A stretch of DNA of 64,000 bases, taken from positions 1 through 64,000 of IMG/VR virus record IMGVR_UViG_3300028840_005911, one strand, 5' to 3'. Made by a program: the position numbers and the translations under genes. This DNA is from a virus. Positions 35,410 through 49,972 of this stretch are shown here, in pieces (within the stretch, counting starts at the first letter, position 1; the number at the start of each line of letters is the position of its first letter). The notes under the pieces are model-generated. The model was not told the DNA's origin. It searched no databases and saw nothing but the letters and a program-made list of their open reading frames with translations.

Positions 35410-35766
35410 TCACCAGATATTCTGTGGCCACAACAAGTGCCCACATATGACGCCCACCAGGACTATCAGCATTGGGATGGTCCTTGGGATATAACCCCCC
35501 AGATCGAGTATGAGTACCCCTATGCAGAGTACTGCGAGAATAGGGATCGAGATCTTCAAATGATTGGGCTCGTGGTCAAGGGGCCACGACATGTGGCCTA
35601 TGAGGATTCCCAGAAAAAATGGAATGACGGGCCTCTTCCAGAAGTACTCCAGGCTGACGGTGCTAATTGTATCTCTTGGGGTTGGTTCTATGGCGGCAAT
35701 GATGTCCCATACGATGGCCGTCGCTATCACTGACCATATGAGTCCGATTGTGATGTACCTAGTCAT
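35410..35766 (-). CDS. four-TM membrane protein
   Basis: Four hydrophobic helices. Internal repeat LIGHMSWP / ICGHLLWP. Confidence 0.7.
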   Translation of the reverse strand: MTRYITIGLIWSVIATAIVWDIIAAIEPTPRDTISTVSLEYFWKRPVIPFFLGILIGHMSWPLDHEPNHLKISIPILAVLCIGVLILDLGGYIPRTIPMLIVLVGVICGHLLWPQNIW

Positions 35767-36304
35767 TCTCTTTCCTACTCAGTAAACATACTAGTGATTT
35801 TCTGTTGGGGACCGCAGTCAGACGTCCGTAAGGCTTCAGGTCCTCTTGCGTCCACGCTGACCTGTGCTCCTCGTGGGGGTTTCCGAAGGCTGACTTCTGG
35901 GCAGACGGTCTGATGGGAGTAACCACTAAGATGTTTTTCGAACGGGCTGAGCAAAGCCTGAGGAACCGGGCACCATCCTCCTTCTCGAAATGTTCTATGA
36001 CATCGACCATCAGTATCAGATCGTAATTGTCGAGCTTCTCAATCACCTCCAGGGCGTTACCAAAGAAGACAGCGTCGTAGGCCCAGTCGTAGATAGGATT
36101 GTGGTACTCTTCGAATACCTCTATCCCGTCTATTCTGCGCCTCCAGTCATCATACCTATCCCGGCCGTCCCAGAGTTCCAAGTACTCCCTAGCAAGGACA
36201 CCATACTTACCGAAGCCGACACCGACGTCCAACATAGACATCGGGTTAACTCTCTTGATCAACGAGATGACGTCGTCGATCTGTGTCCACGCACTAGAAG
36301 GCAT
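35759..36304 (-). CDS. class I SAM-dependent methyltransferase (likely sugar O-methyltransferase)
   Basis: Motif I MLDVGVGFGKYG, acidic DGIEVF, YDLILMVDVIEH. Start MPSSAW overlaps the upstream stop (TAATG). Confidence 0.85.
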   Translation of the reverse strand: MPSSAWTQIDDVISLIKRVNPMSMLDVGVGFGKYGVLAREYLELWDGRDRYDDWRRRIDGIEVFEEYHNPIYDWAYDAVFFGNALEVIEKLDNYDLILMVDVIEHFEKEDGARFLRLCSARSKNILVVTPIRPSAQKSAFGNPHEEHRSAWTQEDLKPYGRLTAVPNRKSLVCLLSRKEND

Positions 36305-48300: not shown

Positions 48301-49972
48301 CATTGAAGTCAATGATCACGCCATCGTCAGACTCGCCTATCAGAGCGCCGTCAACCGGAAGTTCAATATCGCCAGTCTCGACGTATGTACCATTGCGAAC
48401 AAAAACTGTCTTTTCAGAAGCATCAAAGGCGGCTTTGATAGAAGTGTAGTCGCCTCCTGAAGGGGCCACAACGGCATCCCAATGGTCTGCTCCAGGTCCT
48501 GTAGGGCCTGTAGGGCCTGTGGCCCCGGTGGGACCAGTAGGACCGGTTGCTCCTGTCGCACCAGTTGGACCGGTGGGTCCAGTAACCCCGGTTTGGCCCG
48601 TCTGTCCAGTCGCACCAGTTGGTCCGGTCGGGCCTGTGGGACCGGTAGGGCCTGTGGTACCCGCACCTGTGGGCCCAGTTGCTCCTGTCGGGCCCGTTGG
48701 ACCGGTTGTCCCCGACCCTGTAGCTCCGGTCGGCCCCGTTGGTCCAGTGGGGCCTGTCGGCCCAGTTTGTCCTGTCTCCCCAGCCCCAGTGGCGCCGGTA
48801 GCTCCGGTCGGTCCCGTTGGACCTGTTGGGCCGGTCTGTCCCGTCTGTCCGGCCCCTGTCGCCCCAGTTGGACCGGTCGGACCTGTGGTTCCAGTCGGGC
48901 CGGTCGTTCCGGCTCCGGTCGAGCCAGTGGCTCCGGTGGGCCCCGTAGGGCCTGTAGCCCCCGTTGGTCCAGTAGTTCCTGCCCCGGTGGCGCCTGTCAC
49001 TCCGGTAGGTCCTGTTGGGCCTGTTACACCGGTCTGCCCTGTTTGGCCAGTGGCCCCGGTAGGTCCGGTTACCCCTGTGGGACCTGTCGAGCCAGTGGTT
49101 CCCGCTCCTGTAGCTCCCGTGCTCCCCGTCGGACCGGTGGGGCCTGTAGTCCCCGTTTGACCCGCACCAGTGGGACCGGTGGCACCTGTCGGGCCTGTAG
49201 GTCCAGTAACTCCAGTCTGCCCGGTTTCGCCAGTTGATCCCGTGCTCCCCGTCGGACCGGTGGGACCTGTCGCCCCTGTAGGTCCTGTTGATCCTGTCAC
49301 CCCTGTAGGGCCAGTAGGACCAGTAGCACCAGTCTGCCCGGCGCCGGTAGGTCCCGTTGCGCCGGTAGGCCCCGTGGCTCCAGTGGGACCGGTAGACCCT
49401 GTGACGCCCGTCGTACCCTTTGCTCCTGTTGTTCCGGTTGGGCCGGTCACGCCAGTGGGCCCCGTTGACCCTGTGCCCCCTGTGGAACCAGTGGATCCGG
49501 TAGGACCTGTCGGCCCAGTCGGTCCTGTAATTCCGGTGGGTCCAGTAGGTCCAGTGCTTCCTGTTTGACCCGTCTGACCGGTTGGTCCCGTAGGCCCTGT
49601 GGGTCCTGTAGGACCGGTGATGCTCCCTATGCCTGTCTCGACCAGGAGGAAATCGCGCTCTGTAATATCGCCCCAGAACGGGCACACATTCGGTTTGACG
49701 TTGGAAAGGCCATTGACCGTCGGAGTCCAGTACCCTCCTGGCCCGCTGGTCGGAGCCCCGTAGGTTCCCCCACCAGGAACCAGGTCATCCGTGATATCTA
49801 TCGTCGTCCCGGTCGGTACGTTGGTGACCCTGTAGATCCCGCCTCGAGAGGTGTCGCTTAGAAGTGGGGCTACGACATGGTCACCGGTCGACACCCCGGC
49901 AGAGGAGGTGACGGTCAACGTATATGTCGGCCCGGTGCCTGATACCCCTGATATTGTAAGTAGTCCGCTCAT
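45350..49972 (-). CDS. collagen-like fibre with two long Gly-X-Thr tracts flanking a right-handed beta-helix (1540 aa)
   Basis: Two ~375-aa G-X-T tracts. Central [11 protein letters not shown]...FVRNGTY entry and N.I..N...G beta-helix coils. Confidence 0.9.
45905..47027 (-). repeat. (Gly-X-Thr)n collagen-like tract 2, roughly 120 triplets
   Basis: Degenerate 9-nt periodic sequence with about 14 GA/GS dipeptide interruptions. Confidence 0.9.
48490..49615 (-). repeat. (Gly-X-Thr)n collagen-like tract 1, roughly 120 triplets
   Basis: Degenerate 9-nt periodic sequence with about 9 GA/GS dipeptide interruptions. Confidence 0.9.

Follow-up and report, generated by a model that had tools for sequence, protein, structure and literature searches.

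What does a phage do with a three-domain glycosyltransferase (GT) encoded a few genes behind two collagen-like fibers whose repeats carry threonine at almost every third position? This question is raised by the window studied here, the first 64 kb (positions 1 to 64,000) of IMG/VR record IMGVR_UViG_3300028840_005911, a complete virus genome of 192,446 bp bounded by direct terminal repeats (DTR). The window encodes two large collagen-like proteins, FibA and FibB, a 677-amino-acid (aa) enzyme combining GT4, GT2 and tetratricopeptide repeat (TPR) domains, and a class I S-adenosylmethionine (SAM) methyltransferase, and we confirm all of them at the positions given in Table 1. We consider it probable that the enzyme, which appears to be soluble, O-glycosylates the phage's own collagen-like tail fibers on the threonines at the Y position of their Gly-X-Y triplets and belongs to a late virion-module cassette. 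A tie between the enzyme and Gly-X-Thr collagens is supported by their statistical and phylogenetic association. Four competing explanations are weighed below where the evidence touches them; even taken together they are unlikely.

Two collagen-like fibers with threonine at nearly every Y position

FibA is the first and a 118-aa open reading frame (ORF) the last of 12 co-directional genes on the minus strand (49972 down to 35410) that overlap or are separated by gaps of at most 12 nucleotides (nt), with terminator-like sites no more frequent in this string than in shuffled sequence. A preliminary description of this DNA had placed the GT4-GT2-TPR fusion and the SAM methyltransferase in one gene string with the fibers and the enzyme about 4 kb downstream of them. 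This is indeed what we find: the domains of the fusion pass Pfam cut-offs, the methyltransferase carries the SAM motif I LDVGVGFG, and a distance of 3.9 kb, with six genes, separates the end of FibB from the GT start. FibA and FibB are the only collagens detected by a whole-genome scan, and the 677-aa enzyme is the sole GT1-, GT2- or GT4-type gene that GT2 and GT1-group models match in the complete genome.

FibA is built from an N-terminal region, a first collagen tract (residues 120-494), a right-handed beta-helix (~495-982), a second collagen tract (983-1361) and a C-terminal domain; FibB has a beta-helix/pectinesterase-like N-terminal half followed by one collagen tract (residues 638-779) and a C-terminal domain. 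Both contain the long uninterrupted Gly-X-Y runs typical of prokaryotic and viral collagen-like proteins and match the Pfam Collagen family (E value (E) 9e-74 and 243.6 bits for FibA, E 5e-18 and 65.2 bits for FibB). Further Pfam matches are to Beta_helix (E 2e-35) and NosD (E 9e-23) in FibA and to Pectinesterase (E 9e-8) in FibB. The parts of FibA outside the collagen tracts match tail-fiber PHROGs 1980, 972, 910 and 21412, and FibB matches many tail-fiber PHROGs, with its C-terminal part hitting phrog_9017 (tail fiber). Hydropathy analysis finds no transmembrane (TM)-like segment in either protein. Each fiber may form a triple-helical trimer.

Counted in runs of at least 4, Gly-X-Y triplets number 236 in FibA (Y is Thr in 209) and 46 in FibB (Thr in 43), so that the earlier estimate of roughly 280 triplets with threonine almost always at Y agrees well with our totals of 282 triplets and 252 threonines. 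The other 30 Y residues are 27 glycines in GAG/GSG-type triplets plus 3 others, and X is mainly Pro, Ala, Ser, Gln or Val. All four threonine codons are used at the Y positions of FibA (ACA 76, ACC 57, ACT 45 and ACG 31) and 155 of its 236 nine-base units are distinct, which argues that threonine is maintained at the protein level and does not reflect a recent DNA repeat.

The enzyme is closest to protein and peptide glycosyltransferases

The 677-aa enzyme exceeds the Pfam cut-offs for Glyco_transf_4 (29.2 bits vs 28.5) and Glycos_transf_2 (26.9 vs 23.3), and TPR_12, TPR_1, TPR_2, TPR_17 and TPR_14 are above cut-off between residues 500 and 677, a region of all-helical repeats in both structural models described below. 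Its PHROG matches are phrog_2170 (residues 4-249) and phrog_13126 (residues 309-675). Metagenomes contain ten full-length homologues of ~50% identity, and in the alignment of all 11 proteins the EX7E motif of the first domain (E218, E226) and the DDDE motif of the second (395-398) are invariant, so that both catalytic domains look active. The N-terminus thus combines a GT-B fold with EX7E, as GT4 retaining enzymes do, and the remainder shows what characterizes GT2(GT-A)-TPR protein and peptide glycosyltransferases: a DXD domain, a C-terminal TPR array and closer similarity to the characterized members of that group.

For the AlphaFold model of the whole enzyme (predicted local distance difference test score, pLDDT, 78.6) the best Foldseek matches in the PDB are SunS and ThuS (top six chains; E 2e-16 to 1e-15), followed by GT4 enzymes for the N-terminal half. 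The fold of the GT4 domain (residues 1-295) is shared with SenB, BshA and PglA at VIA Z ~24 (root-mean-square deviation, rmsd, 2.7-3.5, ~282 residues aligned) and with SdgB at Z 20.5. When residues 300-677 were modeled alone, SunS aligned at Z 17.2 (rmsd 3.6, 272 residues) and was, in an exhaustive search of 48,161 chains, the sole non-TPR entry among the top 50, where TPR structures scored Z 15-19. Profile searches of the PDB agree. With the profile of the window clade, GmaR (6.5e-5) and ThuS (2.3e-4) are the only catalytic hits at E <1e-3; with a profile that includes collagen-adjacent relatives, GmaR (4.5e-29), SunS (1.4e-22) and ThuS (3e-20) are well ahead of the next catalytic-domain match, chondroitin synthase (1.7e-12). 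The window sequence alone reaches enzymes of the GmaR/SunS/ThuS type only at E ~0.05. By profile and by fold, GmaR, SunS and ThuS, which glycosylate proteins or peptides, are therefore the nearest matches of the GT2-TPR half, in accordance with the protein-glycosylating GT2-TPR type proposed earlier and with the precedent of SgtA acting on GPT peptides (PMC7157674). As a putative member of this group, the enzyme would transfer a sugar to Ser/Thr (or Cys) of a polypeptide.

With SunS and ThuS as the best structural matches and the NCBIfam SunS family reached at E 6e-4, the enzyme could also be a glycocin-type peptide glycosyltransferase that acts on a small secreted or structural peptide. We regard this as very improbable. 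The SunS equivalog model (TIGR04195) was rejected at 18.7 bits against a cut-off of 350, and the neighboring genes scanned match neither an ABC transporter nor a thiol-disulfide oxidoreductase family. The sole adjacent small ORF (93 aa) is Lys-rich and zinc-finger-like, and is presumably not glycocin-like.

Another explanation directs the enzyme at a structure of the host (envelope polysaccharide, teichoic acid, a surface or flagellar protein, or a receptor) for superinfection exclusion or progeny release. Glycosyltransferases in the hypervariable tail-fiber regions of pelagimyophages and actinophages have been interpreted in print as modifiers of the host surface or of DNA (PMC7029224, PMC10202952). 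GT4 enzymes commonly build envelope glycans, and the last gene of the string encodes a multi-pass membrane protein. However, the enzyme appears soluble, with no TM-like segment by hydropathy, and its GT-A half belongs by similarity with enzymes that act on proteins and peptides, not with polyprenol-phosphate or polysaccharide GT2s. No GtrA match was seen among the neighboring genes scanned, and a search of the complete genome for sugar-nucleotide genes (Epimerase, NTP_transferase) found none. A host target would also leave the Thr-specific link to collagens described below without a reason, and we consider it improbable. The particular case of a Gtr-type seroconversion cassette was rejected, as the GT has no TM-like window and the 118-aa membrane protein has no Pfam or PHROG match, GtrA included.

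The last TPRs of the enzyme (residues ~590-676; 36598-36860 on the minus strand) show sub-threshold similarity to PF23558, the peptide-substrate-binding domain of collagen prolyl 4-hydroxylase (E 2.3e-4), and, likewise below threshold, to the leprecan TPR (PF23557) and prolyl 3-hydroxylase 1 (8k0e, E 9e-4). The GT of locus L120 gives the same PF23558 match. As these scores are below cut-off, we did not assign the repeats to a collagen prolyl-hydroxylase-type module and take the matches as generic TPR similarity.

Relatives of the enzyme near Gly-X-Thr collagens of many phages and spore-forming bacteria

All close relatives with enough flanking DNA (L001/L006, L002/L003 and L005/L492) encode giant Gly-X-Thr proteins 2-9 kb upstream of the enzyme, with 393 triplets in L001/L006 (Thr at Y in 369), 211 and 27 in L002, and 758 and 21 in L005/L492. 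In the giants of 393, 211 and 758 triplets Thr makes up at least 90% of the Y residues. The X position varies widely among them (K/R/I in L001 vs P/Q/L or P/A/S elsewhere) and Y stays Thr. The L001 fiber (L001:811-5187) is an unusually basic collagen in its own right, whose X positions are mainly Lys, Arg, Ile or Leu and hardly ever Pro.

Co-occurrence of GT2-TPR enzymes with GXT collagens across phage genomes had been suggested as a check, and it is borne out by a search in the reverse direction. We scanned IMG/VR for (GGNNNNACN)x8, kept 120 stretches (1.03 Mb) chosen by this DNA pattern only, and ran a hidden Markov model (HMM) of residues 305-676 of the window clade on their ORFs. The HMM found a match in 15 of the 120 Gly-X-Thr stretches and in none of 119 control stretches chosen by random 14-mers (1.10 Mb; Fisher p 4e-5). 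A generic collagen scan for twelve Gly codons gave a match in 1 of 107 new stretches. When all collagen loci were pooled, an enzyme relative was present at 14 of 116 Thr-rich loci (at least 50% Thr at Y) vs 2 of 103 Thr-poor ones (Fisher p 0.004). The nine matches checked against Pfam were all over the GT2 cut-off, eight of them with TPRs and one with a 2OG-Fe(II) oxygenase domain instead. The 15 loci are 15 separate nucleotide clusters with enzymes at most 67% identical, no more than 750 nt separate the enzyme and collagen genes in 9 of these 15 viral loci, and a quick maximum-likelihood tree places collagen-adjacent enzymes in most deep lineages.

The same pairing is seen in bacteria. Using the SgtA-size phage subgroup (~355 aa) as query, not the window's own protein, and taking the best 80 genome matches (37-66% identity, mostly Bacillota), we found 44 of the 80 with a collagen ORF at a distance of up to 8 kb; in 31 of these 44 the collagen is Thr-rich. 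The collagen ORF mostly ends just upstream of the enzyme.

One viral locus of the collagen scans (L130:1256-12312) encodes a collagen-like ORF of ~2,800 aa (438 triplets; Y is Thr in 281 and Gln in 77) followed by a 701-aa protein that joins GT2 to a 2OG-Fe(II) oxygenase of the prolyl 4-hydroxylase (P4H) type. From its domains, this protein may both hydroxylate and glycosylate a viral collagen, in a manner that recalls Mimivirus L230.

Phages that share the ends of the fibers without their collagen tracts allow a further comparison. The FibA C-terminal domain alone retrieved nothing from IMG/VR, and a two-sequence alignment then retrieved homologues, among them three phage records with homologues of the FibA C-terminus and the FibB N-terminus (49-60% identity) and no collagen tract. 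Neither the enzyme nor a collagen was found anywhere in these three records, one of which is a 222-kb DTR genome, and neither the enzyme nor the methyltransferase within 10 kb of the fiber-end homologues; the same enzyme and collagen search was positive in all three positive controls. These tract-less phages argue that the enzyme travels with the collagen tract and not with the end domains of the fibers.

The comparison also bears on the possibility that the enzyme glycosylates another virion protein, such as the Thr/Ser-rich 289- and 408-aa proteins, the capsid or the tail tube, with the collagens as mere neighbors. It is the 408-aa and 105-aa pair, and not the collagens, that immediately precedes the enzyme gene, and relatives outside the window clade are not beside collagens. 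In mycobacteriophages, according to the summary of earlier work in PMC12619734, glycans sit on capsid and tail-tube C-termini. Against such an acceptor stand the absence of the enzyme from the tract-less phages with homologous fiber ends, the specificity of the association for Thr-rich collagens, often as the adjacent gene, and L002, which keeps enzyme and collagen though a single 431-aa gene replaces the 289- and 408-aa genes. We judge another virion acceptor to be improbable, much as we do a host target.

Proposed tailoring enzymes

The weakest link of the cassette is the 189-aa methyltransferase, which had been proposed to cap the glycan. That it is a class I SAM enzyme of the gene string holds: it has motif I, conserved in three homologues, and a Rossmann-like core by profile, although Pfam Methyltransf_23 stays under its cut-off (19.2 bits vs 27). 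The capping role is weaker than claimed, since a three-sequence profile finds as closest solved relatives the methyltransferase domains of the RNA enzyme Hen1 (3jwi/3jwg, E 1.3e-7, residues 7-163). Assignment to full-length Hen1 (TIGR04074), a model that extends over the N-terminal Pnkp-binding part, was rejected at 18.8 bits against 340 (E 4.5e-4), with only model positions 351-429 of 462 covered. The protein has no TM-like segment by hydropathy. Its homologues follow the GT in L001 and L005 (50-54% identity), and a link to the glycan may be argued from this conserved position and from the unrelated methyltransferases that are fused to homologous enzymes. An FkbM-type Methyltransf_21 domain is fused C-terminally to the GT relative P0006 and N-terminally to L007, a class I methyltransferase is fused behind the GT2-TPR part of P0020, and L016 and P0022 have the permuted order GT2-TPR-GT4. 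Such fusions, repeated with non-orthologous partners, speak for one pathway that includes both a second sugar transfer and a methylation; they are no proof that the window's Hen1-like protein is the methyltransferase concerned.

Immediately after the GT, L002 (12733-13689, Sulfotransfer_3, E 6e-13) and L003 (6262-7218) carry sulfotransferase genes, with a weak match in L005 (12135-12755), which suggests that these phages may carry sulfated glycans or proteins. In L491 (1605-4260) a 376-aa GT2-TPR relative (P0024, E 9e-38 over the whole length) is immediately preceded by genes for a hexapeptide acyltransferase and a GFO/IDH/MocA oxidoreductase; such neighbors are typical of amino-sugar tailoring, so that other branches of the family appear to bring their own sugar chemistry.

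A Hen1-like methyltransferase is also what one might expect if the cassette acted on nucleic acid, with the GT glycosylating hypermodified phage DNA against restriction. Hen1 methylates RNA ribose, DNA glycosylation is a common role of phage glycosyltransferases, and Mom, NADAR, Thg1 and RNA-ligase-type genes occur near the GT in relatives. We nevertheless consider this explanation highly unlikely. A search of the complete genome for a thymidylate-synthase-like (ThyA-like) hydroxymethylase found none, which argues against DNA hypermodification, the gene lies in a late structural string and not among replication genes, and the best GT-B matches are GT4 enzymes. To our knowledge, the combination of TPRs with a SunS/GmaR-like GT-A domain is also unlike the known DNA glucosyltransferases.

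A possible route of fiber glycosylation

Glycosylation of the collagen-like fibers could proceed as follows. The TPR domain would hold the extended repeat chain in the cytoplasm during late gene expression, and the GT-A/GT2 domain of the SgtA/GmaR/SunS type would transfer the first sugar to Thr from a uridine diphosphate (UDP)-sugar of the host, as the lack of sugar-nucleotide genes in the phage genome argues. The fused GT4 domain would add a second sugar, and O-methylation of the glycan may be the task of the SAM methyltransferase encoded downstream. Relatives have fused methyltransferases of the FkbM type or of class I in its place, and some also a sulfotransferase. For each pair of chains the resulting fibers could bear up to ~250 glycosites, which would make them comparable to the spore nap formed by BclA, and the glycans could serve triple-helix stability, shielding from proteases and antibodies, or adhesion. 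In glycosylated Gly-Pro-Thr peptides the triple helix is stabilized.

We see about an even chance that such Thr-directed O-glycosylation of viral collagen fibers by SgtA-like GT2-TPR enzymes is a widespread and unrecognized trait among tailed phages and in some giant viruses, in many cases together with GT4, methyltransferase or sulfotransferase steps, and that Thr is nearly invariant at Y because the glycan is attached there. The fibers of this phage would then bear hundreds of short, possibly methylated glycans that they need to fold or stay stable, or to interact with the surface of the host.

Observations that weigh against fiber glycosylation

Several observations speak against this interpretation. 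We infer a glycan on any protein here from genes alone, and the closest solved relatives of the methyltransferase are RNA 2'-O-methyltransferases. Co-occurrence within the window clade amounts to conserved synteny and is not independent evidence, and the presence/absence comparison of fiber-end homologues involves 4 vs 3 records. The window GT2-TPR part is only 18-25% identical to the collagen-adjacent enzymes, and it lies six genes from the fibers vs the usual adjacency in SgtA-type pairs. Unglycosylated BclA collagen regions can still trimerize, so Thr need not imply glycosylation.

In a forward test of 48 IMG/VR loci with relatives of the whole enzyme, collagens within 10 kb were confined to the close clade (the search of whole records for collagens covered 6 of 27). 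The nearest relatives outside this clade (L007, L016, P0020, P0022 and P0024) show no collagen on contigs that are short or incomplete; those of P0020, P0022 and P0024, 3-11 kb long, have no Gly-X-Y runs, which is uninformative rather than negative at this length. One tight clade of 18 IMG/VR enzymes in the tree also lacks a collagen within 10 kb. As a single tight lineage these 18 distant enzymes count as about one negative case and not as many, and they imply that the GT2-TPR family has other acceptors too. The size of this family, 1,189 cluster representatives at E <=1e-10 in a search of 1.84 billion proteins, adds to these points. The members of the collagen-free clade (L017-L045) are 700-940-aa proteins that have the GT2-TPR part mid-protein between unassigned N- and C-terminal extensions, and they are found on large viral contigs, including metagenome-assembled genomes of giant viruses.

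Comparison with known glycosylation systems

The nearest precedent for glycosylation of Gly-X-Thr fibers is Clostridioides difficile SgtA, whose 358 aa comprise a GT-A domain and four TPRs and whose gene lies immediately upstream of bclA3. Recombinant SgtA is soluble, requires Mn2+ or Mg2+ and uses UDP-GlcNAc to place beta-O-linked N-acetylglucosamine (GlcNAc) on Thr as well as Ser residues in BclA3 peptides derived from the GPT collagen repeats; the same study identified no enzyme that extends this sugar (PMC7157674). The window enzyme, compared with SgtA by published architecture, size and gene position only, likewise has GT-A followed by TPRs near a Gly-X-Thr collagen gene, and its SgtA-size (~355 aa) relatives in phages and bacteria adjoin Gly-X-Thr genes. 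It differs in that its GT2-TPR part is fused behind a GT4 domain and lies 3.9 kb from the fibers, and in that the putative acceptor is a tail fiber and not a spore coat protein. We infer membership in the immediate SgtA family from architecture, size and gene context.

Like the BclA spore nap of Bacillus, the fibers combine long Gly-X-Thr stalks with a globular C-terminal domain, and in both cases GT and methyltransferase genes are nearby; the multi-sugar O-glycans of BclA are methylated. Daubenspeck et al., cited in PMC9614988, are said to have found in 2004 that the Gly-X-Thr repeats of B. anthracis/cereus BclA bear O-linked, partly methylated oligosaccharides. BclA differs as a spore-surface protein served by dedicated rhamnose and anthrose pathways, whereas no sugar-nucleotide enzymes were found in the phage genome. 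GmaR, SunS and ThuS (PDB 22ao, 7msn and 7msk), the nearest solved relatives, share the order GT-A then TPR and cytoplasmic polypeptide acceptors with the window enzyme. They differ in the acceptors themselves, Ser/Thr of flagellin for GmaR, the GlcNAc transferase of Listeria flagellin (PMC9638930), and Cys/Ser of small peptides for SunS and ThuS, and GmaR has an extra antirepressor domain.

Viral enzymes that modify the virus's own structural proteins are also known. A064R of PBCV-1, with two glycosyltransferase domains and a methyltransferase domain, extends the N-linked glycan of the capsid protein Vp54 (PMC9614988), and P0006 and L007 similarly unite two GTs and a methyltransferase in one chain. 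In A064R, however, neither domain is of the GT4 or GT2-TPR kind, D1 being a GT-A of low sequence similarity and D2 a new GT family; the host is eukaryotic, and neither TPR nor collagen is involved. Mimivirus L230, a lysyl hydroxylase and glucosyltransferase, puts glucose on hydroxylysine of the collagen-like L71 (PMC9614988). L230 is thus another virus enzyme for the virus's own collagen-like proteins, an assignment proposed in our case; it differs in using hydroxylysine instead of Thr, in GT family and in lacking TPRs. In mycobacteriophages, phage GTs encoded near structural genes O-glycosylate virion proteins at the C-termini of capsid and tail-tube proteins, not at collagen repeats, and affect antibody recognition (Freeman et al. 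2023, as far as summarized in PMC12619734). Collagen fibers of E. coli prophages are reported to be unglycosylated when made recombinantly (PMC3368898).

For the GT4 domain, the fold of SdgB (PDB 7vfo) and its repetitive acceptor are points of likeness, with a repeat of another type. Staphylococcus SdgA and SdgB are GT4 enzymes that add GlcNAc to Ser-Asp repeat adhesins in two successive steps. As SdgB is one of ~900 GT4 matches at Z >=8, the likeness indicates no specific relationship to the window enzyme.

Thr glycosylation of Gly-X-Thr spore collagens by a GT2-TPR enzyme (SgtA/BclA3), Mimivirus L230, chlorovirus A064R and mycobacteriophage virion glycosylation are therefore already known. 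The preliminary description knew of no collagen-directed version of phage virion glycosylation; as glycosylation of collagen by a virus is already known from Mimivirus L230, only the Thr-directed phage version appears to be undescribed. A literature search found no publication describing Thr-directed glycosylation of phage collagen-like fibers.

Should fiber glycosylation prove true, many environmental phages would display glycoprotein fibers made by their own enzymes, and the modeling of tail-fiber/receptor recognition, of virion stability and of shielding from antibodies and proteases would change. The dominance of Thr at Y in many collagens of viruses and Gram-positive bacteria would then have an explanation, and phage GTs of a class usually annotated as modifiers of the host surface or of DNA would be given another role. 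The pair of enzyme and repeat is compact and soluble and could serve to make defined glyco-collagens.

Neighboring genes

Table 1. Genes and domains of the string from FibA to the membrane protein (window positions)
Feature	Position	Strand	Remarks
FibA, 1540 aa	45350..49972	-	proposed main acceptor, 209 Thr at Y
FibB, 932 aa	42550..45348	-	proposed second acceptor
136-aa protein after FibB	42127..42537	-	no Pfam/PHROG match
125-aa DUF1353 protein, tail-assembly-chaperone type	41750..42127	-	Pfam DUF1353 E 5e-8; phrog_1158 "tail assembly chaperone" E 1e-21
Three genes (249, 289 and 408 aa) between fibers and GT	38960..41807	-	no family
105-aa protein directly upstream of GT, after 408-aa gene	38633..38950	-	paralogue of 136-aa protein
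677-aa three-domain glycosyltransferase	36595..38628	-	Pfam GT4, GT2 (311-427) and TPR (500 to end)
GT domain 1, residues 1-295, GT-B/GT4, EX7E E218..E226	37744..38628	-	proposed glycan extension
GT domain 2, residues ~305-480, GT-A/GT2, DDDE 395-398 as DXD	37189..37716	-	proposed Thr priming
TPR domain, residues ~495-677	36598..37146	-	proposed acceptor binding
93-aa protein, Lys-rich N-terminus, CxxxxC...CxxH zinc-finger-like motif	36304..36585	-	between GT and methyltransferase
189-aa class I SAM methyltransferase, Hen1-like	35759..36328	-	proposed sugar O-methyltransferase; weakest link
118-aa multi-pass membrane protein, last gene of string	35410..35766	-	context only; hydropathy windows >=1.6 at residues 4-28 and 67-117

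The 136-aa and 105-aa proteins are related (BLASTP E 1e-7, 39% identity over 51 aa) and, each trailing a larger gene, are possibly fiber-specific assembly factors. The 125-aa DUF1353 protein has a homologue of 53% identity upstream of the GT in L005. No matches to Pfam, PHROG or NCBIfam were obtained for the 249-, 289- and 408-aa proteins, which are probably distal fiber or receptor-binding parts. Two of them match parts of the single 431-aa protein encoded directly upstream of the GT in L002 (8709-10001) and also in L003, the 289-aa protein with residues 1-202 (78% identity) and the 408-aa protein with residues 269-395 (43%). Compared with this gene, the region 38960-41055 on the minus strand resembles a distal fiber gene in mosaic or split form. 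The 93-aa protein has a homologue of 37% identity at the same place in L001, with the motif CxxxxC...CxxC, and other relatives have ORFs of 94-95 aa after the GT. Just upstream of the fiber genes and within the structural string, the window also encodes a sigma-70-like factor (Sigma70_r3; phrog_351) at 50868-51626 on the minus strand.

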